Of a stretch of 59,428 nucleotides of DNA, positions 976 through 59,428 are shown in pieces. The notes under the pieces are model-generated. The model had not been told where the DNA came from. It made no database searches and worked only from the letters and a program-made list of their open reading frames with translations. The translations under genes were made by a program, and so were the position numbers. Origin of the DNA: a virus; IMG/VR virus record IMGVR_UViG_2866649352_000001, positions 1 through 59,428 of that record, one strand, 5' to 3'. How positions within the stretch are numbered: position 1 is the first letter of the stretch; each line of letters opens with the position of its first letter.

Positions 976-1109
976 TTCGGCCTCCCTCCTGCTGTCCGTG
1001 AGTCTGGCAGCGCCTTGACACACGTGCGATGCTGTCCGACAGCGTTGACAGCACTTCTTTGAGGAGGGCCCGGAGAACTGTGGCACGTGACCTAGACCCA
1101 AGCTCCAAC
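976..1109. promoter_or_regulatory. Divergent intergenic control region between the ATPase and XRE genes
   Basis: Two TTGACA hexamers (1015-1020, 1045-1050); a 13-bp palindrome GCTGTCCGACAGC (1031-1043); a half-site GCTGTCCG repeated at 991-998. Confidence 0.4.
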
Positions 1110-1877
1110 ATGTGGGACTGGATCGCGATCCAGCTCCGACATGAGCGAGAGAAGCAGAACTGGTCAACGGCGCAGGTCGGACGCCTGCTGAACACTGACC
1201 GGTCGAACATCACGCACATCGAGGCGGGGAGGCGGCACCTCGCCGCAGATCAGGCCGCCAAGCTCGACACCGCGTGGGACACGGGGGGCCGCTTCGCCCA
1301 GATGGTGGACTACGCCCAATCGACGTATCACCCTGACTGGAACCGGGAAAGGCGGACGTACGAGCAGAACGCGACCGCAATCAAGACGTTCCACGCAACC
1401 CTCATCCCTGGGTTGCTCCAAAGCGAGGAGTACGCGCGTGCAGTCTTTGTGGCAGGTGGACGAGCGGATGTCGATGCAGCGGTGGCGGCGCGTCTGGCGC
1501 GACAGGAGGTCCTGAAGCGCCCTGGCGTGAGGCTCTGGGTGCTGCTGGATGAGGCGGTGCTGCTTCGGCCGGTTGGTGGTCCGGCCGTCTGGGCACGCCA
1601 GCTCTCCCATCTACTGAATGCCTCGGAGCAGCCCGATACCGTCCTGCGCATCATCCCATTGGCCTACGGTGAGTACCCTGGTATGGACGGCCCCATAACC
1701 ATTTTCACCATGGACGGCAAGGACGTGGCCTGGACGGACGCTCGGTCCGGGGGTCGGCTGGTGACGGACCCGGCAGCGCTGGACCGATACCGGGTTGAGT
1801 TCGACATGATCGGAGCCGACGCCTTGAGCCGGACTGAGTCGCGACGGCTGCTGACTGAGAAACTGGAGGCATTGTAG
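1110..1877 (+). CDS. XRE-family HTH regulator with DUF5753-like C-terminal domain (WhiJ-like)
   Basis: N-terminal HTH (WSTAQVGRLLNTDRSNITHIEAGRR). The C-terminal ...FHATLIPGLLQSEEYARAV...ARLARQEVL... is typical of Streptomyces WhiJ/Scr1-type XRE proteins. Start taken at ATG 1110. Confidence 0.75.
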   Translation: MWDWIAIQLRHEREKQNWSTAQVGRLLNTDRSNITHIEAGRRHLAADQAAKLDTAWDTGGRFAQMVDYAQSTYHPDWNRERRTYEQNATAIKTFHATLIPGLLQSEEYARAVFVAGGRADVDAAVAARLARQEVLKRPGVRLWVLLDEAVLLRPVGGPAVWARQLSHLLNASEQPDTVLRIIPLAYGEYPGMDGPITIFTMDGKDVAWTDARSGGRLVTDPAALDRYRVEFDMIGADALSRTESRRLLTEKLEAL

Positions 1878-2059
1878 TGATCCACTGGAGGAAGTCTTCG
1901 CGCAGCGATTCGCGTGGAGAGTGTGTCGAGCTGGCCGAGCTGGACAGCTCTGTAGGCATCCGAGACAGCAAGAACCCGGACACCCCCCACCTCACTGTCG
2001 GCCGCGAGGCCCTGTCGGGCCTCCTCAGCCGGATCAAGGCCGGCGAGTTGGACCTGTAG
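1877..2059 (+). CDS. DUF397 domain protein
   Basis: WRKSSRSDSRGECVELA....VGIRDSKNPD.P.L is the DUF397 signature. GTG start overlaps the XRE stop (TAGTG), indicating translational coupling. Confidence 0.8.
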   Translation: MIHWRKSSRSDSRGECVELAELDSSVGIRDSKNPDTPHLTVGREALSGLLSRIKAGELDL

Positions 2060-2067
2060 AACCGCTT

Positions 2068-2088
2068 GACCGGCCTCCAGGGCCGGTC
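2068..2088 (+). terminator. Stem-loop after the DUF397 gene
   Basis: gaccggcc-tccag-ggccggtc lies 9 nt after the stop. Confidence 0.5.
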
Positions 2089-2222
2089 CTAGGCTTCTCT
2101 GTGTGAGGCCGTCACCGTTGCGGCCTAGCAGTTTGGACTTTGGTTCACCTAGCTCGACCCAATCCACGGCCTCACCCCAAGAACCTCCCCTCCGGGGGAG
2201 GTTTTTTGGCTATTCTGGGCTC

Positions 2223-2504
2223 ATGAAGGGCAGAATCCTCCTTTTCGGGGCAGTTTTGGCCGTTGCGACGGCCTGTGGGGCGTCTCAGGACGACCAGATC
2301 GTCATGAAGGACCCATCCAACGGGAAAGAGCGGACCTTCAAGGAGGTCCGAGACATGTTCGCGGACGGTTCGGTCACGACCGGAGGCGAGTCCTGTGCCA
2401 CTTTCGTGTCGTTCGGGGCCAAGGACCAGGGGATCGAGTTCCCGGCCGGACAAGCTGAGTTCGTGAAAGCCTGCGAAGAAGGCTTGAAGGCCAAGTCGAA
2501 TTAG
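2223..2504 (+). CDS. Secreted lipoprotein (93 aa)
   Basis: MKGRILLFGAVLAVATAC is a signal peptide plus lipobox (A-T-A-C). Start taken at ATG 2223 inside ORF 2103..2504. Confidence 0.6.
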   Translation: MKGRILLFGAVLAVATACGASQDDQIVMKDPSNGKERTFKEVRDMFADGSVTTGGESCATFVSFGAKDQGIEFPAGQAEFVKACEEGLKAKSN

Positions 2505-3539
2505 GAATGGCTGAAATGGCCTCTGAACGAGTCTCGGCCCGGACTCGTTCCCTCTCCACCCGGATTAGCCCTGAGGCTCTTAGGAGCCGAATGAGCGCCA
2601 TTTAGAGGCATATGGGACTCCGCGGGGAGTCCCGGTTTTACCATTTCGTGATCTTGGAAGTTTTCCGAGGTGGGATAAGGAATTTTGGTGACGAAACGAC
2701 TACGTTTCGCACTTTCTATTTTCGTACATTTCCGGAGAGGGGAGACGAGTCTCTCCCGCACCCCCGGACGAATGAAGGTACCCCCCCAGGGGTAGGCTGA
2801 CCTGCGGCAACACACTCCCACGCGTGATCACCCTCACTGTATGTGACAGTCATCACTCAATCACATTCAGTGCACGCCGTGCACTGTGATCTGCGCTAAC
2901 ACCATGTGAGTGTGTCACTCACATCATCAACAGTGTGTAGCCACATTGAGTGCATACCTCACGCGCATATGCGCACATGTGCGCACGCGCGGATGAATAA
3001 ACCACGCGCGTACGCGATTAACACACACCTCGCCATTGTGCCAACACCCTCTAAACGGCTCTCAGAGGGCCCGTGAGCGCTTGAACCCCCATTCCCTAGT
3101 CCCACTATGGCCCTGGCCCTATTCGCTGCCTGCCTGGTTAGGGGCACTATTCCTACACTCGGTAATCGACCCCTCACGGGGGCCGATGCTCCCTGGCTCG
3201 GTATCTCGGTTCGGTAACGAAACGCTGCCAGCACCCAAACCCTGCCAAGTGAGCGTCAAGTGAGCTTCCCTCGCGCGTACGCGCGCGAGAGGGAGGCTCG
3301 CGCGTGCGTTGGTTCTTTCATCCGGGCGGGCCGGGACACGCTCCCCGCTCCACGGAGCGTAGTTTCAGAACTCTTTTCAGTGAGTTTCTGAGCCCTGACC
3401 TGGAGAAACGCAAGTCCTCTAAAATATCTTGCTCTTACCTATTGTGACCTGCGGAAACGACCTAAAGCCGCAGGTCAGAAGAACGCACAACCTGTTAAAA
3501 CAGGGTGTTAGCACGTCGTGTGTTTGCTAGCTTTTCGGT

Positions 3540-3925
3540 TGTCAGCAACACGGACCGCCACCACGGGGCCCGGGAAGCAGACGGAGGAACGAAACCCGGC
3601 AACGACGACCGGGAGGGCAGGGACCAAACCGAGGTTCGCGAAGATGCCCATAGTCAGCCGTAGACACTTACGGGCAGGCTCGAACGGAACGTTGGGAAAC
3701 GTGCCGGGCGCGAAAGTGGCGCTTGAAGCCTCGTGAGAAAAATCGCGGGTGAACTAGATGGCTTCGCGGACTATGGCCGGTAGGTCGCCAGCCCAAAGGT
3801 AGCGGGTGAACACGCGCTTACCGTGGGAAACCACCGCCGAAAGGCGGTAGGTCCGGCGGTAACTAGGCAGTCGTACCCGGCGTAAAGCCTTCAACTCAGA
3901 CGCTCGGAAAGTCCTCTGACCAAAG
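3540..3925 (+). ncRNA. Candidate structured RNA or long structured leader (unclassified)
   Basis: Plus-strand GNRA-capped helices: cggaacgtt-GGGA-aacgtgccg (3685-3706), gtgg-GAAA-ccac (3823-3834), cgcc-GAAA-ggcg (3835-3846), a GAAA-containing loop at 3708-3722. Further helices at 3595-3613 and 3658-3673. Internal repeats GCGGGTGAAC x2 and GGTAGGTC x2. No convincing ORF. Confidence 0.25.
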
Positions 3926-3933
3926 GATGGATC

Positions 3934-4266
3934 ATGTACCAACGTCAGATGCAGCGTCCGGACTTCGACGCCAAAAAAGACTTCTCCCAAGCGGAACCTA
4001 CTGACCGTCACCACTACCGGAATAACGGTCTGGGCCGCAGGATGCTCCACCTGTCCAGCGGTAAGGGTACGCGTACGGGAGTGGGCGAGACTAAGCCGTT
4101 CACGGCTGCTCGTAAGTCTCCCCGTAAGCAGAGTTCCGCGCCAAAGGGCTACCCGCCCGCGCGGATGTCGAGTCCGAAGAATGCCGCAGCGCACGAAAAG
4201 CGTATGGCGACGCTTCGCGAACGTCACCCGGACGTTTACGCCCGAATGATGCGTGAAGCCAGCTAG
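3934..4266 (+). CDS. Hypothetical basic protein (110 aa)
   Basis: ATG preceded by AAAGGATGG and followed by a clear terminator. Arg/Lys-rich. Preferred over the antisense ORF 3754..4227. Confidence 0.5.
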   Translation: MYQRQMQRPDFDAKKDFSQAEPTDRHHYRNNGLGRRMLHLSSGKGTRTGVGETKPFTAARKSPRKQSSAPKGYPPARMSSPKNAAAHEKRMATLRERHPDVYARMMREAS

Positions 4267-4279
4267 TACTGTCCGATAA

Positions 4280-4308
4280 AGGCCGACCCTTTTGGGTCGG
4301 CCTTTTTC
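4280..4308 (+). terminator. Intrinsic terminator
   Basis: aggccgaccc-ttttg-ggtcggcct followed by TTTTT. Confidence 0.75.
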
Positions 4309-4322
4309 CTTTGGGAGGGTTA

Positions 4323-4550
4323 ATGGACCTCGCGTTCAGTCCCGGCTACTTCCCGAACGACTTCGGGGGGACGGACATCCTGACCGGCAACGGGGAGTTC
4401 TGTGGCCGGACTGGTCGAACCAAGTTCGACACGTGGGCCGCCGCCATCCCCGATGGGGCGGGTTCGATCGCCATTCTGGGGGCCAACTTCGAGACGGACA
4501 ACGATGCACAGGTGTGCATCTTCCGTGCCCTCGCGAAAAGGGGCTACTGA
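4323..4550 (+). CDS. Hypothetical protein (75 aa)
   Basis: ATG after GGGAGGG; stop overlaps the next start (TGATG). Confidence 0.55.
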   Translation: MDLAFSPGYFPNDFGGTDILTGNGEFCGRTGRTKFDTWAAAIPDGAGSIAILGANFETDNDAQVCIFRALAKRGY

Positions 4551-5995: not shown

Positions 5996-6784
5996 ATGGT
6001 CGTTTCTCTGGTGAAGGACTACGTCCACACCTTCCCGTACCCGTATGACGACCTCTGGTTCAAGATGTCGCCTGCGTTCCGCTTCCTGGTGGACAGCGGC
6101 GTGATCGACCTGGAGAAGGGCGCCGAGATCCCTTACCGGTGCGAAGGCGTAGACGAGATCGCCTTCGAGCTGGACGGGCCGTGGTCGGGTTCGGACTACT
6201 CCGGGGATGACATCACCGAGTCGAACCAGCGATCCCTGGCCCGTGACTACAAGGACATCGTGATCGACTCCACGAGGTACTGGGGCCACAGCCCCTACGG
6301 CCTCCAGGTGGACGTCTACTTCGGATGGGGTGAGAACGCCGATCACGCCATGGACCTGGCCGAGAACCTTGTCAGCCTGAAGCACGACTACCCGTTGTAC
6401 GACGAAGAGGACAACTCCAAGCTGCTCGACGAGCGCGCGGAGCGGGCGTGGGACGGATACATGGAGTCGGACATCGCGTCCGACATCGAGAAGCGTCTCG
6501 GGATCGATCTGGATCTCAGGACGGACAAGGCCGGTGAAATCTTCTGGGAGACGTGCAGCGATCACGAGATTTACCCAGAGGCCGAGGGACACCGAGACGT
6601 CCTCATGCGGGGGACCGGTGATGAGGAATTCCAGATCGATCTGGCGCGGCGTGTGCTGGAAGCACAGGGGCCCGAGTTCCCCGACTACCTCTACGACCTG
6701 ACGGACCTCGGTTACGAGGTCCTGGCCGACTACATGGTGAAGCAGTTCGAGGGCCAGTGCCCTGGCCAGATGAGCATTCTCTGA
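5996..6784 (+). CDS. Hypothetical acidic protein (262 aa)
   Basis: Long ORF, Asp/Glu-rich; no family recognised. Confidence 0.6.
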   Translation: MVVSLVKDYVHTFPYPYDDLWFKMSPAFRFLVDSGVIDLEKGAEIPYRCEGVDEIAFELDGPWSGSDYSGDDITESNQRSLARDYKDIVIDSTRYWGHSPYGLQVDVYFGWGENADHAMDLAENLVSLKHDYPLYDEEDNSKLLDERAERAWDGYMESDIASDIEKRLGIDLDLRTDKAGEIFWETCSDHEIYPEAEGHRDVLMRGTGDEEFQIDLARRVLEAQGPEFPDYLYDLTDLGYEVLADYMVKQFEGQCPGQMSIL

Positions 6785-8080: not shown

Positions 8081-8319
8081 TGCGGCACTGGACAACGTCT
8101 GACGGTTCGCACGTGTGGGCATGGGAAGACGTTCGAGGCGCGGACTACCGCGCCATCTGGATTCCTGCTAAGGACTCCATAGAGCTGCTCCGTTCCGTCT
8201 CCGCCGGAGCGGGTTGGCCCACGGTCGCGACCGTTTCGGAAGTGTACGACCGTTTCCATGCGAAGCACATCACCGACTCCTGGTACGCGCTCATCTTCCA
8301 CATCGACACAGTGAAATGA
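8080..8319 (+). CDS. Hypothetical protein (79 aa)
   Basis: Coupled start (TGATG). Confidence 0.5.
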   Translation: MRHWTTSDGSHVWAWEDVRGADYRAIWIPAKDSIELLRSVSAGAGWPTVATVSEVYDRFHAKHITDSWYALIFHIDTVK

Positions 8320-35241: not shown

Positions 35242-36864
35242 CTAGTAAGTGCGCATTCGGGCCTTGCGGCGGATCTTCATTCGGCCATCTGCGATGGCCT
35301 CACCACGGGCGGCGTATGCCAGGACCGCCGCCATCGCGGCGTCGATCTTCTTCTTGGAGCCCTTGGATTCCTTGGTGATGAGAACGCCCTGGGGGACCTC
35401 GAAGGTCACGGCGTTAGTGATGTGCTGGCGCAGGATCTTGTCGCCGTCATGGCAGATCTCATTGCCTAGAAGAACGGCGGTATGAAAGCGCTCGATCGCG
35501 GCGGCCATCTGCTTGACGCGCTGAGGCGGGAACTCGAAGACGATGTCCCGGCCTTCCTTATCCAGCTCCTTGAAGTCAAGCGACCAGAAACCAATCTGGT
35601 TCTGCCACTGGTTGGGGTCACAGTAGACCCACTCGACCTTGTAGGTCTCGTTGGCGAGCCTCATGGCTCGGTCCACGAGGAACGGGTTAACCTGCCAGTC
35701 CTCGTCCCGTTCGTCCTTTTCCTGAATGTGGATCAGGAACAGCTTCCCGTCGCGGAGACGGCAGCCGACAATGGCTGTGGAATCGGACCGGAGGGAGCCG
35801 TCGAAGCCGATGGCGATCTGGTCGCCCGGCTTGATCGGGTCGTTCCGATCGAAAAGGCTCTCCCACGTGTACTTGTCGATCCAGTTGTCTGCCGATTCCA
35901 TGATTTGGTTGCAGTAGAATCGGTAAAAGACCGCCTTCGGGGTGAGCGGGTCTGTAGCCTTCGAAACCAGACCAGTGACGGGAGCCCAGTAGGAATCTCC
36001 GTACGCGTCCCGGAGGGCCGCAAGAACAGCCTCAGAGTCCGTCAGGTCCTCTACAGGAGCACCTTCACGGCAGTCGTAGAGAAGCTCTGGGAAGTCCTGT
36101 AGGAACTTCTCATAGGTCCGCTGAGCGACGCTCTCCTCATTTGGGTTGAAGGCGTTGGTCGTCTGCATCAAGCGCGAGCCATCGGCCATCGTCTTGTCAG
36201 CGTTACGCTGAAGCGTCTCAAAGACGGTGGGGCCGCCATTCGAGGAGACCCAGTGATGGGTCTCATCGCAAATGACAAAGGTCGGACGGGCACCCTCAAG
36301 TCCACGAGAGGACGAGGCAACTGGCTCAATGCGACCAGGCCGGCCGTCAAGGAACTGGATCCGCTCCTTGCCGATGTCGAGCCCGTAGACGTGCTCGGCG
36401 GGACTTTCCGAGAGCATTCCCCGGATCATGTCGCGGGTCTGCTCGGTCTGGTCTAGAGAGGTGGCAGCGATCTGCACGACGGGCAGCGGAACAGGAATGC
36501 CGATGGGCATTCCCTTGTCGTCTCGGCCACCGAAGCGACAAGGACCGATGAACTCGATGATCGCCAGAGCGGCGAGCAGGGGAGTCTTCCCCCAACCCTT
36601 CGAGCGACGGAGGCTGACCTCTCGATACAGCCAAGGACTGTCCTCTTCCGTGACAGTCGCCTCGTCCTTGATCGCGTAGGCCCAGAGAATGAAGCGCTTC
36701 TGCTCGGCGGTGAACTGCCACGGCTCGCCAGCATGGCGGCCGTCAGGGTGGACGATGTAGGTCTCACACCAGCGGAGAATCTGATATCCGAGAGTGTCCT
36801 TCGGATGCGGAACGCCCTTGGGAAGATTTCCGGTCTGCGGTTCCCAGTCCATTGGGTACGCCAC
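35242..36864 (-). CDS. terL: Terminase large subunit (540 aa)
   Basis: Walker A-like SKGWGKTPLLA; VICDETHHW (Walker B-like); C-terminal nuclease-like IGFDGS...D; GTG after AAGGGGG. Confidence 0.85.
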   Translation of the reverse strand: MAYPMDWEPQTGNLPKGVPHPKDTLGYQILRWCETYIVHPDGRHAGEPWQFTAEQKRFILWAYAIKDEATVTEEDSPWLYREVSLRRSKGWGKTPLLAALAIIEFIGPCRFGGRDDKGMPIGIPVPLPVVQIAATSLDQTEQTRDMIRGMLSESPAEHVYGLDIGKERIQFLDGRPGRIEPVASSSRGLEGARPTFVICDETHHWVSSNGGPTVFETLQRNADKTMADGSRLMQTTNAFNPNEESVAQRTYEKFLQDFPELLYDCREGAPVEDLTDSEAVLAALRDAYGDSYWAPVTGLVSKATDPLTPKAVFYRFYCNQIMESADNWIDKYTWESLFDRNDPIKPGDQIAIGFDGSLRSDSTAIVGCRLRDGKLFLIHIQEKDERDEDWQVNPFLVDRAMRLANETYKVEWVYCDPNQWQNQIGFWSLDFKELDKEGRDIVFEFPPQRVKQMAAAIERFHTAVLLGNEICHDGDKILRQHITNAVTFEVPQGVLITKESKGSKKKIDAAMAAVLAYAARGEAIADGRMKIRRKARMRTY

Positions 36865-37341: not shown

Positions 37342-37415
37342 TGGTGACCCCGGCGGGAATCGAACCCGCACCACGAGGGTGAGAACCTCGCAACCTCCCG
37401 TTAGTCCACGGGGCC
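37342..37415 (-). tRNA. tRNA-Glu (CTC)
   Basis: Hand-folded cloverleaf: acceptor GGCCCCG/CGGGGTC, anticodon loop TTCTCAC, T-loop TTCGATT, CCA encoded. Confidence 0.8.
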
Positions 37416-37416
37416 G

Positions 37417-37490
37417 TGGCTCCAGGACAAGGATTCGAACCTCGATTGCCGGGTTCAGAGCCCGGCGTCCTACCGTTAGACGATCCTGGA
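37417..37490 (-). tRNA. tRNA-Gln (CTG)
   Basis: Acceptor TCCAGGA/TCCTGGA, anticodon loop CTCTGAA, T-loop TTCGAAT, G73, CCA encoded. Confidence 0.8.
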
Positions 37491-37495
37491 ATGAG

Positions 37496-37568
37496 TTGGC
37501 TAGGCAGGAGTCGAACCCGCACCTTGCGCTTTAGGAGAGCGACGCTCTGTCCATTGAGCTACTAGCCA
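37496..37568 (-). tRNA. tRNA-Arg (CCT)
   Basis: Acceptor TGGCTAG/CTAGCCA, anticodon loop CTCCTAA, T-loop TTCGACT. Confidence 0.75.
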
Positions 37569-37569
37569 G

Positions 37570-37652
37570 CGGAGAATCAGGGATTCGAACCCCGGACGGT
37601 TTTACCCGCGACGGCCTAGCAAGCCGCTGCCATACCATTTGACGAATTCTCC
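37570..37652 (-). tRNA. tRNA-Ser (GCT), class II
   Basis: Acceptor GGAGAAT/ATTCTCC, anticodon loop TTGCTAG, long variable arm, 83 nt. Confidence 0.7.
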
Positions 37653-37653
37653 A

Positions 37654-37728
37654 TGGAGCCCCACACCGGAGTTGAACCGGTATCCTCTGATTGGAAGTCA
37701 GACATCATTGCCGTTAGACCAGTAGGGC
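37654..37728 (-). tRNA. tRNA-Gly (TCC)
   Basis: Acceptor GCCCTAC/GTGGGGC (one G-U), anticodon loop CTTCCAA, T-loop TTCAACT, CCA encoded. Confidence 0.75.
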
Positions 37729-37794
37729 AAGTACACTCTTTGGCTCCGCCGCATGTATGTCTGCGGACTTTGACGGGTAGAGTGCGGACCTTTG

Positions 37795-37867
37795 AGCCCC
37801 TACGAGGTGCTGCCCCCCGCTTTCCTGCTTACAAGGCAGGTACATTCGCTGATATGTTATAAGGGCT
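37795..37867 (-). tRNA. Candidate non-canonical tRNA-Thr (TGT)
   Basis: 73-nt element with an 8-bp acceptor AGCCCTTA/TAGGGGCT, D stem ACAT/ATGT, a perfect anticodon arm CCTGC-CTTGTAA-GCAGG and T stem CGGGG/CCTCG. The T-loop is GGCAGCA (no TTC) and the D-loop has no GG. Confidence 0.35.
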
Positions 37868-37935
37868 GGTTTTCCCACCAGGACCCATAGTCCCTCCATC
37901 TCCTCAGGGTGCTACCCCTCGGATTAACGGGAACG

Positions 37936-38022
37936 CGGAAAGCGGAGGACTCGAACCCCAACAGCAATGCCATCCACCCGTTTTCGAGACGGGGGCCGCA
38001 CCCACAGGCGACATCACTTTCC
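37936..38022 (-). tRNA. tRNA-Ser (CGA), class II
   Basis: Acceptor GGAAAGT/GCTTTCC, anticodon arm CCCGT-CTCGAAA-ACGGG, T-loop TTCGAGT, 87 nt. Confidence 0.7.
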
Positions 38023-38066
38023 ATCGCACGTCGATATTTTTACACGCCTCGACGGCGGGGCGAGAG

Positions 38067-38139
38067 TTGGTCATGTGGGAATTGAACCCACCATCTTCCG
38101 CGTATCAGACGGATGCTTTCACCACTAAGCTAATGACCA
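38067..38139 (-). tRNA. tRNA-Ile (GAT)
   Basis: Acceptor TGGTCAT/ATGACCA, anticodon loop CTGATAC, T-loop TTCAATT. Confidence 0.7.
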
Positions 38140-38141
38140 AG

Positions 38142-38215
38142 TGGAGCCTGAGAGATTCGAACTCTCGGCCTCTGGTTTGCAAGACCAGCGCTCTAACCAT
38201 CTGAGCTAAGGCCCC
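38142..38215 (-). tRNA. tRNA-Ala (TGC)
   Basis: GGGGCCTTAGCTCAGATGGTTAGAGC..., anticodon loop CTTGCAA, T-loop TTCGAAT, A73. Confidence 0.85.
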
Positions 38216-38610
38216 ATGTACTTTCCTGCGCAAGACCTACCGCAGAACGGTCCGGCCTTGCCTTGCTTCCTGTTGTGTCGCACCTTGCGAGCTTCCTTCT
38301 TTGAAGGCGTCTCACAGACAGGGCAGATGAACTCATACCACTCGACGCTCAACCTCAGAGCTGCACTCTTCTTTGCGTTCTCAGAACGAGTGAGCACGGC
38401 AAGGTTGCTGAGATCGTCGTTGGTCTTGTCCTCGTCGATGTGGTCAACGGTTTCGTCCGTGTCGAGCACCCGGCCGAGATGCTGTTCCATCAGGTGCCGG
38501 GAGTAGAGCTTGGTTGTGCGCTTGCCGTTGTCAGTAAGAACCACGTACCTACGCCCGGCAAGCGGTCCACTGTTGTGGACGTAAGGGCCGTTGACCCTGA
38601 GCATAGACAC
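38206..38610 (-). CDS. HNH homing-type endonuclease inserted in the tRNA array (134 aa)
   Basis: The motif ...VDHIDEDKTNDDLSNLAVLTRSEN... is HNH; C-terminal CPVC...C..SC. The last 10 nt, including the TAG stop, are the first 10 nt of tRNA-Ala. Confidence 0.8.
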   Translation of the reverse strand: MSMLRVNGPYVHNSGPLAGRRYVVLTDNGKRTTKLYSRHLMEQHLGRVLDTDETVDHIDEDKTNDDLSNLAVLTRSENAKKSAALRLSVEWYEFICPVCETPSKKEARKVRHNRKQGKAGPFCGRSCAGKYMGP

Positions 38611-38623
38611 GATCCTTTCGAAG

Positions 38624-38696
38624 TAGGCTCGGAGGGACTCGAACCCTCACTACACGGTTTCTAAGACCGCTCTCTCTACCATTGGAGTACGAGCCT
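38624..38696 (-). tRNA. tRNA with anticodon TAG (Leu codon CUA/CUG) but class I (short variable arm) body
   Basis: Acceptor AGGCTCG/CGAGCCT, D-loop AATGGTAG, anticodon arm GCGGT-CTTAGAA-ACCGT, 5-nt variable loop GTAGT, T arm GAGGG-TTCGAGT-CCCTC, A73. Confidence 0.65.
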
Positions 38697-38704
38697 AAGA
38701 AAAT

Positions 38705-38729
38705 ATGGGGTTGGTGGATTCGAACCACC
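38705..38729 (-). pseudogene. Orphan tRNA 3' half (T arm plus acceptor 3' strand) without a matching 5' half
   Basis: Perfect T arm GGTGG-TTCGAAT-CCACC followed by AACCCCA. No complementary TGGGGTT occurs in the next 100 nt (38730-38801), which instead forms GC-rich hairpins. Confidence 0.4.
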
Positions 38730-38801
38730 TCGCGTACCGCAGAGCCAGCCGCTTTCCCATGTGTCCGCGTCCGGACGCCCCGCCCGCCGTCGCGGGCTTT
38801 G

Positions 38802-38875
38802 CTGACCATGCAGGACTCGAACCTGCACCACCGGGATTAACAGTCCCGCGCACTACCTAGTTATGCTAATGGCCA
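38802..38875 (-). tRNA. tRNA-Asn (GTT)
   Basis: Acceptor TGGCCAT/ATGGTCA, anticodon arm CGGGA-CTGTTAA-TCCCG, T-loop TTCGAGT. Confidence 0.8.
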
Positions 38876-38920
38876 TTGAAGAGAAAATGAGGGGGCGCTA
38901 GCTTCCCCCTCATCATGATG

Positions 38921-38993
38921 TAGGTCCACCAGGATTCGAACCTGGACAACTCCGGGTAAGAGCCGGATGCACTGGCCGTTATGCTATAGACCC
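38921..38993 (-). tRNA. tRNA-Lys (CTT)
   Basis: Acceptor GGGTCTA/TGGACCT (two G-U), anticodon arm TCCGG-CTCTTAC-CCGGA, T-loop TTCGAAT. Confidence 0.75.
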
Positions 38994-39049
38994 ATGACGT
39001 AGGCTGTACCGTGCTACGCCCCACGGGAGGGGATTTACAGAACCCTCAG

Positions 39050-39122
39050 TGTGACTCCCAGGAATCGAACCTGAGACCTGCCGGGCTTCAACCGGCCGCT
39101 CTTCCAACTGAGCTAGAGCCAC
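39050..39122 (-). tRNA. tRNA-Phe (GAA)
   Basis: GTGGCTCTAGCTCAGTTGG..., anticodon arm GCCGG-TTGAAGC-CCGGC, T-loop TTCGATT. Confidence 0.85.
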
Positions 39123-39123
39123 A

Positions 39124-39198
39124 TGGAAGCGCCAACGAGATTCGAACTCGTATGAAGCAGGGTTGCAATCTGCTGCCTCACCATTCAGCCATGGCGCT
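39124..39198 (-). tRNA. tRNA-Cys (GCA)
   Basis: Acceptor AGCGCCA/TGGCGCT, anticodon loop TTGCAAC, U73 discriminator, CCA encoded. Confidence 0.75.
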
Positions 39199-39202
39199 TC
39201 GG

Positions 39203-39277
39203 CGATCCGTACCGGATTCGAACCGGCAACCTTCGGCGTGACAAGCCGATGCTCTAACCTGATTGAGCTAACAGACC
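39203..39277 (-). tRNA. tRNA-Asp (GTC)
   Basis: Acceptor GGTCTGT/ACGGATC (G-U pairs), anticodon arm TCGGC-TTGTCAC-GCCGA, G73. Confidence 0.75.
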
Positions 39278-39282
39278 GAGAG

Positions 39283-39354
39283 TACCCGTTCCAGGATTCG
39301 AACCCGGATTCCGAGGTTCGTAGCCTCGTGCTCTATCCGTTGAACTAAACGGGC
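39283..39354 (-). tRNA. tRNA-Arg (ACG)
   Basis: Acceptor GCCCGTT/AACGGGT, anticodon arm CGAGG-CTACGAA-CCTCG, T-loop TTCGAAT. Confidence 0.8.
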
Positions 39355-39406
39355 ATAGAGCAGGCGGAGCCTGCTCCAAGAGGGGACAACCTACGTTGTC
39401 CCTGAG

Positions 39407-39479
39407 GGTGACCAGAGGGAGTTGAACCCTCGCCTACAGGATCACAACCTGTCGTGCAAACCCTTTACACCTTGGCCAC
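39407..39479 (-). tRNA. tRNA-His (GTG)
   Basis: Acceptor GTGGCCA/TGGTCAC, anticodon arm ACAGG-TTGTGAT-CCTGT, C73; no encoded G-1 seen. Confidence 0.75.
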
Positions 39480-39481
39480 AG

Positions 39482-39553
39482 TAGATCCTCTTGGATTCGA
39501 ACCAAGGCCAACCTGTTTGTAGGACAGGCGCTCTTCCGCTGAGCTAAGGATCC
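39482..39553 (-). tRNA. tRNA-Val (TAC)
   Basis: Acceptor GGATCCT/AGGATCT, anticodon arm CCTGT-CCTACAA-ACAGG, with C rather than U at position 33, which is atypical. Confidence 0.65.
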
Positions 39554-39579
39554 ATAAGCACGGCGGAGCCGTGCTGACG

Positions 39580-39652
39580 TCGCGGACGCCTGGAGTTGCA
39601 CCAGGGGCCTTCGGGTTATGAGCCCGCTGCTCTACTACTGAGCTACGCCGCG
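39580..39652 (-). tRNA. tRNA-Met-type (CAT); initiator, elongator or Ile2 identity unresolved
   Basis: 5' CGCGGCG TA GCTC...; anticodon arm GCGGG-CTCATAA-CCCGA (three G-C pairs next to the loop); T arm CCTGG-TGCAACT-CCAGG (non-canonical loop); acceptor 3' strand CG(T)CCGCG needs one bulged T. Confidence 0.55.
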
Positions 39653-39710
39653 TAGTGGCTTTTGACCGGAGCCTCCAACCGGAACGATTCTTATGGCGTC
39701 GATCTACCCG

Positions 39711-39783
39711 TATACCCAGAGGGATTCGAACCCCCACCCCCGTGGTCCCAAACCACGTGCTCTAGCCATTAAGCTACGGGTAT
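39711..39783 (-). tRNA. tRNA-Pro (TGG)
   Basis: Acceptor ATACCCG/TGGGTAT, anticodon arm CGTGG-TTTGGGA-CCACG, T-loop TTCGAAT. Confidence 0.75.
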
Positions 39784-39926
39784 ATGTTTGTGGGCTGGTG
39801 AGTCTGTCAAGTACTCACACTTAGCTGTGAACAGAGCCCACTGAAATCCGGACCTCACATGCTGACGGAGTCAGCAGGCTTGAACCTGCAAGCTCCGCTT
39901 GCATGTAAGGGAACGGATGGTTTAAG

Positions 39927-39999
39927 CACGACGGGTAGGACTCGAACCTACACACACTGGTTTTGGAGACCAGCGCTCTTCCAATTGAGCTACCGACGC
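39927..39999 (-). tRNA. tRNA-Trp (CCA)
   Basis: Acceptor GCGTCGG/CCGTCGT (one U-U mismatch), anticodon arm CTGGT-CTCCAAA-ACCAG, G73. Confidence 0.7.
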
Positions 40000-40000
40000 A

Positions 40001-40083
40001 TGGTGCGCAGGGTAGGAGTCGAACCTACACAGCCAAGGGCGCCTGGTTTACAGCCAGGGCGACTCGCCAATGTCCGCCTACGC
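40001..40083 (-). tRNA. tRNA-Tyr (GTA), class II
   Basis: Acceptor GCGTAGG/CCTGCGC, anticodon arm CCTGG-CTGTAAA-CCAGG, 13-nt variable arm, CCA encoded. Confidence 0.75.
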
Positions 40084-57999: not shown

Positions 58000-59211
58000 C
58001 TAGCTTCGGCTGCCCAGAAGAAGCTTCGCCATCTCGGCGGCGATGGCCTTCTTCTCTTCCTCGCTGTGGTCGTATATCTCGACCACGGCCCGGGAGCGCT
58101 GTCCGAGGGCATCCCCAACCGTGTCCCGAGAGGCTCCCAGATCACTCGCGATGGTCGCCCACATGTGCCGTAGGTCGTGGGGAGACGCCGGGGGAAGCTC
58201 TGCGTACCGGCCGAGGCGTCTGAACCGCTCCGTGACGTTACCGGGGTCCATCGGGATACCGGGCAGGAATACCCGTCCCTTCACTGACTTCTTCAGGATC
58301 GGGCGGTCGAAGACCACACCGGTTTCCTCCCAAGGCCCCTCGGCCTTGGCCTTCTCTTGCCGCTCCTTCTGACCGAGGAGGATTTCCTCCAGCAGGTCGT
58401 CCATGTGCAGGACGATCCGCCGGCCGCCCTTCTGGCTGACCTCTACGACCCCTTCAGGGGTAATGGTCCGGTTGGTGGAAGCAACGATACGGTGCTTCTC
58501 AAAGTCGATGTCGGACCATTTGAGGCCCAAGGCCGTTCCCCGGCGAACGCCAGTGGCAGCCATGAAGCACCACAGAGCCCTGAAGGAGGGCTCTGTTTCC
58601 ATCTTCAGGAAGTCGAGGAACTGCTCGACGGTCCATCGCTCCTTGGGGGTGGTCTTCCGATCTGCGTCGTAGTGGAGGGCCTCTTCGCGAAGCTTCCGGA
58701 CGCCACCAGAGACCTTGGTCCAATCCGCGTCCAGGAGGTGGTTCACCACGCCGTAATCCATGATGGCGGAGAGGACAGTCACCCTGTTGACAAGCGTCGT
58801 CGGGACGCGAGGCTCGCCCTTGTACTTGATGGCCCGGATCTTCAGTACCCACTGGTCTACGTGTAGGGGGAGGATCTCATCCAGGGCCATCCCCCCGAGG
58901 TAGGGCTCGATGTCCCTCTTGTACCAGGTCTTCCAGTGGGAGCTGGTCGTGCTCTTGACCGTCTCAGCGGCCCAGAACATCTCCGCCAACTTGTTGAGGG
59001 TCATACTCTTGGTCGGCCGCTTCTTGGCGGCCTGCTGTGCCTTGATCCACTCGACAGCGGCTTTGTGGTCTTTGAGACCGCGCTTCCAGAGCCGTTCGGA
59101 CTTCTTCGTGAACGGGTCCTTGATGCTGACGGCGGCGTCGTAGACGATCTCGCCGTTGGCGAGCGTCCTCGGCCGGATGCTTCCGGCCCCATTCCTCGCC
59201 CTCTTGCCCAT
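58000..59211 (-). CDS. int: Tyrosine integrase (403 aa)
   Basis: Catalytic-domain signatures ...GVRRGTALGLKWSD..., ...HDLRHMWATIASDLG... and ...VEIYDH (R, HxxR, Y). ATG 59211 follows GGAGGG; the TTG at 59226 is the alternative start. Confidence 0.85.
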   Translation of the reverse strand: MGKRARNGAGSIRPRTLANGEIVYDAAVSIKDPFTKKSERLWKRGLKDHKAAVEWIKAQQAAKKRPTKSMTLNKLAEMFWAAETVKSTTSSHWKTWYKRDIEPYLGGMALDEILPLHVDQWVLKIRAIKYKGEPRVPTTLVNRVTVLSAIMDYGVVNHLLDADWTKVSGGVRKLREEALHYDADRKTTPKERWTVEQFLDFLKMETEPSFRALWCFMAATGVRRGTALGLKWSDIDFEKHRIVASTNRTITPEGVVEVSQKGGRRIVLHMDDLLEEILLGQKERQEKAKAEGPWEETGVVFDRPILKKSVKGRVFLPGIPMDPGNVTERFRRLGRYAELPPASPHDLRHMWATIASDLGASRDTVGDALGQRSRAVVEIYDHSEEEKKAIAAEMAKLLLGSRS

Positions 59212-59301
59212 GTCCCTCCAGCTCAACTGTGACAGGAACTACAGCATACGCGCTCCGTCGCCGTGTCGAACGAGGTCAGAGGGATGTGGATCTTGCTTCT
59301 A
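59212..59301. other. attP-candidate intergenic region (continues across the circular junction into 1..186)
   Basis: About 300 bp of non-coding sequence next to int. It contains CTGTGACAGG (59227-59236), TTGTGACAGG (109-118), GTGTGACATG (69-78) and the inverted repeat GTGACAC-N5-GTGTCAC (122-140). The core was not identifiable. Confidence 0.3.
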
Positions 59302-59428
59302 GCAATCCACCCACACAAGACGCTCCACGCCTATACCCTCCTTGACCTGCCAAAACACCCGAGCGGAGAGTGTGACATGTCCAGATTTGACCAGCGACGA
59401 CGGACTCGATTGTGACAGGACTGTGACA
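59302..59428. repeat. Second copy of the 127-bp terminal overlap
   Basis: Identical to 1..127. Confidence 0.95.

Follow-up and report, generated by a model that had tools for sequence, protein, structure and literature searches.

At positions 2505–3933 of the 59,428-nt stretch of DNA analysed here (the window), which is the entire contig of a phage from Actinomadura sp. KC216, lies a region without genes that is referred to below as the gap. Its limits are exact: position 2505 is the first base past the stop codon of a lipoprotein-like open reading frame (ORF) and position 3934 is the first base of the ATG of the next gene (gene 1). Positions 1–127 of the window are identical to 59302–59428, and this exact 127-nt direct repeat of the contig ends indicates a circular assembly with a unique genome of ~59,301 bp and an arbitrary window start. 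The phage is a temperate siphophage of ~59.3 kb. Its early operon occupies the + strand from 3934 to ~18 kb (14 kb) and encodes the 110-aa product of gene 1 together with DUF3987, DUF6884 and Lsr2 proteins; the structural genes are on the − strand and the replication genes (a helicase, primase and PolA block) are found at 41–57 kb, ~40 kb from the gap. An earlier interpretation of the DNA from its letters (the sequence-only reading) had placed the gap immediately downstream of the lysogeny module, which is roughly right, with a gene pair of the HTH_31/DUF5753 and DUF397 types close by and the integrase on the other side of the circular junction (Table 1). We consider it probable that the gap combines the junction of the virion genome ends (the cohesive-end site, cos) with the control region of the early operon, including a long, folded, untranslated leader.

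Table 1. Features of the gap and of selected genes of the phage, in window coordinates.
Feature	Position	Strand	Remarks
Tyrosine integrase	58000–59226	−	Across the circular junction from the gap
HTH_31/DUF5753 + DUF397 gene pair	1029–2059		Near the gap
Lipoprotein-like ORF	2223–2504	+	Stop directly precedes 2505
Hairpin, 9-bp arms	2525–2550	+	Just past the stop of the upstream + strand operon; assigned by position only
GC-rich hairpin, 8-bp arms, then GGTTTT	2614–2633	+	Terminator-like
cosB-like block	2634–2742	unstranded	AT-richer; approximately the first 110 bp of the virion left end; holds inverted repeat 2692–2709 and CGTACA
Predicted cosN	2740–2757	unstranded	Palindrome GGGAGA-CGAGTC-TCTCCC centred at 2748.5
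cosQ-like C-run GGTACCCCCCCAGGGGTA	2777–2794	unstranded	34 nt inside the predicted right end
CTGACCTGCGG, copy 1 of region-restricted motif	2797–2807	+	Adjoins the C-run; position kept in relatives
Spacer	2810–3390	unstranded	Pyrimidine-rich on +; perfect GC-rich palindromes at 2868–2886, 2904–2924, 2963–2985 and 3270–3304
Promoter-like CTGACC-19-nt-TAAAAT	3395–3425	+	Pattern match only; 19-nt spacer is long
Inverted repeat TGACCTGCGG/CCGCAGGTCA	3445–3477		10-bp arms, 13-nt loop; fold z = −6.0
Extended −10-like TGCTAGCTT	3525–3533	+	Only one in the gap; alternative early promoter; pattern match only
Hairpin CCCGG-CAACGACGA-CCGGG	3595–3613	+	Near the 5′ end of the purine-rich leader
Structured RNA domain, 143 nt	3631–3773	+	Nested helices closed by CGAAG/CUUCG; internal GNRA-capped hairpin
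Irregular ~20-bp hairpin, GAAA loop	3818–3862	+	Fold z = −4.9
Shine-Dalgarno AAGGA and ATG of gene 1	3923–3936	+
First early gene (gene 1), 110 aa	3934–4266	+	ATG at 3934
262-aa early protein gene	5996–6784		Homologues used to find related prophages
TerL	35242–36864	−

Neither megablast nor blastn gave a DNA match for the region and 24 kb of the genome against 50,697 phage records. At the protein level, the window TerL is 52–58% identical to TerL of the Streptomyces phages Ponzi, Success and Ibantik and of Thermobifida phage P318, and homologues of the 262-aa early protein led to prophages or contigs of Actinomadura oligospora, two Spirillospora, Sphaerisporangium, several Nonomuraea and metagenomes. 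Scans of genomes and metagenomes with the 262-aa family returned only five loci and one locus, respectively, and searches of IMG/VR with three flanking proteins returned no match. A gene-free stretch is found at the equivalent place in every relative retrieved (n = 13: nine Streptosporangiales prophages or contigs, the three Streptomyces phages and P318). It is ~1.3–2.4 kb long, with both ends summed in linear records, and measures 1432, 1940, 1694, 1531, 1497, 1670, 1505, ~1340 and ~1310 nt in the nine prophages or contigs. Wherever the contig extends far enough, the stretch lies directly upstream of a + strand operon that is syntenic across the relatives, in which ArdA is additionally present. 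Gaps that can be aligned are 62–84% identical within groups; the two groups used below are G1 (L008, L009 and L010, from Spirillospora and A. oligospora) and G2 (Nonomuraea and Sphaerisporangium). The gap is conserved as non-coding DNA across the relatives; it is a real feature and largely explicable.

The description of the gap in the sequence-only reading as an ORF-poor, non-coding stretch of ~1.4 kb is confirmed. Codon periodicity is lost: third-position GC periodicity (maximum minus minimum), which is 0.3–0.6 in the flanking genes, is 0.00–0.15 over 2431–3600 and at most 0.20 up to 3933. The 25 ORFs of at least 30 aa in the gap include none that is protein-like, with implausible translations and no Shine-Dalgarno sequences. 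A protein frame conserved in homologous phages, which the sequence-only reading had itself named as evidence to the contrary, was sought by six-frame comparison of the alignable gaps with those of relatives and was not found; all frames on both strands match alike, so that the conservation is at the nucleotide level and does not derive from a reading frame. It is therefore very improbable that the gap conceals unannotated protein-coding genes. A 72-aa ORF (3518–3736, +) and a 47-aa ORF (3508–3651, −) do coincide with weak GC bias at third positions (GC3) and a 52-aa gene is annotated inside the gap of L011, but hidden genes were rejected on GC3 periodicity, inspection of the ORFs and the six-frame comparison, and independent annotators have left the gap gene-free in the 13 relatives.

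The most solid element of the gap is a cos site, which was absent from the roles that the sequence-only reading had considered and which very likely lies within 2720–2800. A circularly assembled contig is expected to carry its cos internally. The physical genome ends lie inside the gene-free stretch in four of the four linear virion records, the gene-free junctions (left + right) being 265 + 1187 nt in Success, 282 + 1166 nt in Ponzi, 549 + 823 nt in Ibantik and 826 + 1598 nt in P318. The ends of P318 have been determined experimentally to be 3′ cohesive with the overhang CGCCGGGGGCC (PMC6893835), the reverse complement of which forms the first 11 nt of the flipped P318 right end. When the linear ends were joined in the window orientation and aligned with the prophage gaps, a colinear chain was observed that consists of a CGTAC(A/T) anchor, the cut 20 nt after the anchor start and GGTA(T/C)(T)ACCCC 31–36 nt past the cut. 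This chain is common to P318, Success, Ponzi, L019, the G1 and G2 relatives and the window. The 20-nt distance holds for P318 (where the cut is mapped), Success and Ponzi and is equal in the window, with CGTACA at 2723–2728 and GGTACCCCCCC at 2777; the 31–36-nt distance holds for P318 and Success, and the GGTA(T/C)(T)ACCCC element is also present in G1, G2, L018, L019 and L021.

By this spacing, the equivalent of the 11-nt 3′ overhang is predicted at ~2743–2753, with an uncertainty of ~±15 nt in the cut. The predicted overhang is centred in the cosN palindrome, whose twofold symmetry is as expected for a nicking site. No other DNA in the gap is as well conserved as the adjacent cosB-like block, which matches L009 at 66% identity over 159 nt, includes long invariant runs and is colinear with the left end in each of Success, Ponzi, Ibantik and P318; the labels cosB-like and cosQ-like are given by analogy with lambda. 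A cut at 2779, beside the C-run, was also considered and was dropped in favour of ~2743, as the multiple alignment of P318, Success and L019 shows the C-run to be a second, downstream element. Gene 1 lies 1211 nt from the cos anchor in the window and 1186–1505 nt from it in the relatives measured, except for Ibantik (843 nt); the value for Success is ~1207 nt after manual correction of a mis-placed automatic anchor. Comparison by blastn of the window gap with the Streptomyces phage junctions gave noise except at the cos flanks. With the same anchor and C-run spacings, a predicted cut of twofold symmetry, a conserved AT-rich block on the first-packaged side and a related TerL, the window cos would, as judged from its sequence, be a further member of the P318/Success type. 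P318 itself has a larger gene-free junction (L033/L034, 1–826 + 46448–48045), and its right end is very T-rich, with runs such as GGTTTTTGTGAGTTTGGGTTTTTAG, unlike that of the window.

The gap is also dense in potential structure, as had been noted before. It contains 14 perfect hairpins (arm of at least 6, loop of at most 8) compared with 8.5 ± 2.9 per 1429-nt segment genome-wide; at least 14 are reached in 32 of 580 segments, of which the top-ranked lie in the tRNA cluster or overlap the gap. Hairpins with arms of at least 8 number seven against ~1.9 expected. The five hairpins named in the sequence-only reading exist, but their coordinates were off by 1–18 nt and should read 2525–2550 (not 2543–2568), 2614–2633 (not 2622–2641), 2692–2709, 3338–3360 and 3445–3477. 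The AT-richer patch reported at 2640–2740 is likewise present (43.6% GC versus 59.9% for the genome), and the cos site accounts for it and for the hairpins at ~2690–2795. Fold z-scores on the + and − strands are −6.2 and −5.9 for 2505–3000, −4.6 and −1.9 for 3000–3500 and −2.0 and −1.2 for 3480–3940. Since those of 2505–3000 are equal on the two strands, the excess folding there is a property of the DNA, with its perfect palindromes, and is not evidence for RNA. At the left edge of the gap, the 2525–2550 hairpin is probably a 3′ end or terminator structure, and 2614–2633 is a terminator-like end of the HTH/DUF397/lipoprotein operon, although it was not reported by a terminator scan that needed at least five T in the eight bases after the stem. 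After cos, pyrimidines predominate on the + strand, which then turns to a purine-rich composition resembling that of the operon's coding strand. The change occurs at ~3450–3500 in the window and is common to the relatives, where it falls earlier.

The spacer between cos and the promoter-like sites is probably protein-bound DNA at the last-packaged end. Its sequence is poorly conserved among relatives, with the exception of the 14-bp palindrome GCGCACATGTGCGC, which is identical in the window (2971–2984) and in the Nonomuraea prophage L019 (3817–3830) and lies at a similar distance from the cos anchor (248 nt in the window and 240 nt in L019), while the flanking DNA of the two is unalignable. 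Similar palindromes (GTGCGCAC/GCGCGC) occur in L021, Ibantik, Success and Ponzi, 120–380 nt inward of the right end.

On balance, we take 3540–3933 to be a transcribed, structured leader. The hairpin at its 5′ side (3595–3613) shares 92.6% identity over 27 nt with L009, and L008 keeps it with a different stem, CGCCC/GGGCG. A covariance model (R1; 130 positions, 43 pairs) was seeded with L008, L009 and L010 only and was searched against 280 kb. A single non-seed match rose above noise, namely the window at 3631–3773 on the + strand, which is full-length (26.4 bits, E ~ 0.002) and at the syntenic position; there was no match on the reverse strand. In the resulting alignment 96.4% of cells are paired, with nine compensatory pairs; none of 500 shuffles equalled it, and slid controls were 25–40% paired. 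The fold z-score of the domain is −3.4 on the + strand and −2.0 on the − strand. The domain is homologous to, and covaries with, its counterparts in the three prophages; it is previously undescribed and mildly interesting. Further downstream, the core CCACCGC/GCGGTGG of the 3818–3862 hairpin recurs 60–75 nt upstream of gene 1 in the G2 relatives, where the 150 nt that immediately precede gene 1 fold into four hairpins containing eight compensatory and many G–U pairs, which argues for RNA structure on the + strand. A global alignment of the complete set of leaders (MAFFT) could not be interpreted.

No known RNA family was identified in the gap. A scan of 2000–4400 with the 4227 models of Rfam 15, which the sequence-only reading had suggested, gave only chance-level matches in the gap and no family even at a permissive threshold, ARAGORN detected no tRNA or tmRNA in the gap, and the eight IMG/VR contigs that matched the pattern GGCAGGCTCG-N2–3-GGAACGT were all chance matches. 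Compared with Rfam and tRNA families, the leader has many GNRA-capped hairpins and nested helices, and relatives carry a T-loop (GGTTCGATTCC) and an acceptor-like stem. There, a tRNA-like module is found at the 3′ end of the leader (L010 8706–8777, L009 ~8160–8262, L008 ~1430–1508 and L024 ~150–215), composed of the acceptor-like stem, one long hairpin and a T-arm with the T-loop, and devoid of a D-arm in L008 and L024. The L010 copy is called as tRNA-Gly(tcc) by ARAGORN only and is below the Rfam tRNA threshold. In G1 the module is followed by a terminator, GGGCAAAAAATTTGCCC, before gene 1. The window has lost the T-arm and the terminator, and its leader therefore continues directly into gene 1. 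The suggestion of one or more non-coding RNAs expressed from the prophage is thus upheld in part: the 3′ third of the gap on the + strand plausibly yields a structured RNA, but nothing directly supports expression from the prophage, and its location assigns the leader to the early lytic operon, as in mycobacteriophage L5 discussed below.

Two promoter-like elements, the only ones identified, precede the leader (Table 1). Between them, near the change from pyrimidines to purines, lies the 3445–3477 inverted repeat, a candidate for an operator or for a 5′ stem-loop of the leader. The motif TGACCTGCGG that forms it occurs three times, always in the gap region and nowhere else in the genome. The promoters of the G1 relatives are much better, with TTGACA-17/18-TAGATT/TAAGGT 710–850 nt upstream of gene 1. 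In the G1 gaps (L009 7480–7650 and 8290–8320 and the equivalents in L010 and L008), TTGACAG-N4-TTNGACAG (TT(N)GACAG) is repeated four to five times; two copies overlap or form the near-consensus promoters and one lies directly against the gene 1 ribosome-binding site, an arrangement suggestive of promoter and operator in one. The window contains no TTGACAG-N4-TT(N)GACAG motif.

These elements can be assembled from left to right into the composite arrangement that we favour. Terminator-like hairpins at 2505–2633 would end the upstream accessory/lysogeny operon, and 2634–2794 would constitute a 3′-overhang cos (cosB-like block, symmetric cosN and cosQ-like C-run) cut by terminase. Packaging would proceed leftward in window coordinates from cos, which makes the ~1.15 kb to the right of the cut the last DNA to be packaged and, presumably, the first to be injected. 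Beyond the spacer, an early promoter within ~3395–3533, possibly with the TGACCTGCGG inverted repeat as its operator, would direct transcription of a purine-rich, highly folded and perhaps stable untranslated leader of ~400–500 nt that extends to 3933, ahead of the 14-kb early operon. Several observations weigh against this arrangement. The predicted overhang, AGACGAGTCTC, does not resemble the C-rich (C/T/G)GCCCCC(G/T)GCG found in P318, Ponzi and Success, and the cut is possibly nearer the C-run at 2780–2789; the tolerance of ~±15 nt is given for this reason, the window end being a prediction. The promoter candidates are weak, one with a 19-nt spacer and the other a −10 element alone, and a generic σ70 scan found no promoter. 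The fold z-score of the whole leader is only −2.0. The seeds of R1 are near-identical and the alignment was fitted to the model, so that the four sequences effectively amount to one independent comparison and not to statistical proof, and a second-round model (R2) did not detect the 3631–3773 domain in G2, L019, L021, Success, Ponzi or Ibantik.

Other explanations place the function of the gap in its DNA. A replication origin or other DNA-level initiation site in the spacer, which the sequence-only reading had listed together with a partition centre, would be compatible with the dense perfect palindromes, the equal folding on both strands, the palindrome conserved in position in L019 and a local minimum of cumulative GC skew near 3.3–3.6 kb. 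We regard it as improbable: the GC-skew analysis proved uninformative, as the cumulative curve rises monotonically and the minimum only marks the one break in strand composition; the spacer is not AT-rich, the AT-rich patch being part of the cos block; the spacer is poorly conserved; and the replication genes are distant. Neither iterons nor parS arrays were found in the gap, direct repeats there are short and irregular with no tandem repeat beyond a 2.5-copy 10-mer, and no Rep or Par domains occur in the neighbouring genes (the full genome was not screened for ParAB), so that origin and partition are not borne out. An immunity centre, in which the palindromes and TGACCTGCGG sites bind a repressor that silences the early operon in the lysogen, is unlikely to be the main role of the gap, though less so than an origin. 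The restriction of the three TGACCTGCGG sites to this region, the 10-bp inverted repeat that one pair forms beside the promoter-like sites, the G1 repeats overlapping two good promoters and the operator at Pleft of L5 are all in its favour, but CTGACCTG is maintained in both G1 and G2, two divergent groups, although operators specific to an immunity type usually differ, and the sites are not dispersed through the genome as are the stoperators of L5. At most, an immunity role might take the restricted form of an operator at the early promoter.

The third alternative concerns the RNA and takes L5 as its model. In L5, the start site of Pleft lies ~625 bp from the right cohesive end and Pleft is overlapped by a repressor operator, and in L5, D29 and StarStuff the ~500 nt from Pleft to the first gene (gene 89 in L5) have no conserved ORF and give rise to the most abundant phage transcript, found as four stable species of 100–500 nt from a region that is toxic to the host (PMC5712189). 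Shared between the window and the right end of Cluster A phages are actinobacterial hosts and a gene-free ~1.1–1.2 kb between the cohesive end and an early operon transcribed away from that end, which has no ORFs conserved among relatives and is the most divergent part of the genome. The order of elements is alike and the dimensions nearly so, with promoter, operator and RNA only predicted in the window. A blastn search (word size 11) with 2400–4300 against the 50,697 phage records gave no match that would indicate homology to Cluster A, and no stoperator-like motif was found scattered through the window genome; the window is therefore likened to the L5 right end and not classed as a member. 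By analogy, the leader may instead be one or more discrete, stable, trans-acting non-coding RNAs, very abundant early in infection and acting on the host (takeover, toxicity or anti-defence), a possibility that we hold to be doubtful but the least so of the alternatives. Besides the L5-type precedent, the tRNA-like module and intrinsic terminator that end the homologous G1 RNA before gene 1 point to a separate transcription unit, and the G1 core is 94% identical between genera as against ~70% in the rest of the gap. The leader of the window, which lacks both T-arm and terminator, reads straight into gene 1, and no homology to the L5 region was detected. For the window we retain the composite arrangement of cos and early control region with an untranslated leader.

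If this arrangement is correct, it accounts for ~1.4 kb without genes in a densely packed genome and sets a meaningful genome start and end for the annotation of this phage and about a dozen related prophages. It would also extend the L5-type architecture (cohesive end, spacer, early promoter, long non-coding leader and early operon) to phages of Streptosporangiales and Streptomyces, pointing to selection, convergent or ancient, for a leading end that is non-coding. The conserved domain, together with the tRNA-like module of the relatives, offers concrete probes of the function of the leader RNA. A tRNA-like 3′ module of this kind is not known for L5. More speculatively still, phages of the Actinomadura/Spirillospora lineage, and perhaps of a wider clade, might carry at the last-packaged, probably first-entering end an undescribed structured RNA that acts as a stable effector; in relatives it is 450–900 nt long, with a nearly invariant ~140-nt core, and ends in a D-arm-less tRNA-like module and a terminator. 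Such an RNA would be made before any protein and could serve in host takeover, as an anti-defence decoy or as a unit processed by RNase P/Z; having a defined fold, it would parallel the toxic RNA of the L5 right end.

Gene 1, at the downstream edge of the gap, has an unusually weak GC3 bias (~0.65) and encodes a basic, low-complexity protein for which Pfam and PHROG gave no match and an exact-sequence look-up no record. It is nevertheless a real gene, since a clear homologue of 108 aa is present at the syntenic position in L024, with the common motifs TDRHH[WY]RNNGLG, GVGET, PKG[FY]PPAR and ERHP[ED]VYAR. In L007, a Logan contig, the homologue of the gene for the 262-aa early protein is directly followed by a type II hammerhead ribozyme (Rfam RF02276; 2696–2763, +; 54 bits against a gathering score of 37, E = 5 × 10−8), of which no counterpart was detected at threshold in the window. 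In Ponzi (L003, 22753–24365), TerL is annotated as two coding sequences, for the ATPase and nuclease domains, that are 116 nt apart; tblastn joins the halves into one match to the window TerL with 97% coverage, pointing to a frameshift or an intervening element. The window carries a cluster of 20 tRNA genes (37342–40083, −) that separates its terminase genes from the replication module, and phage Success has eight tRNA genes at the equivalent position.

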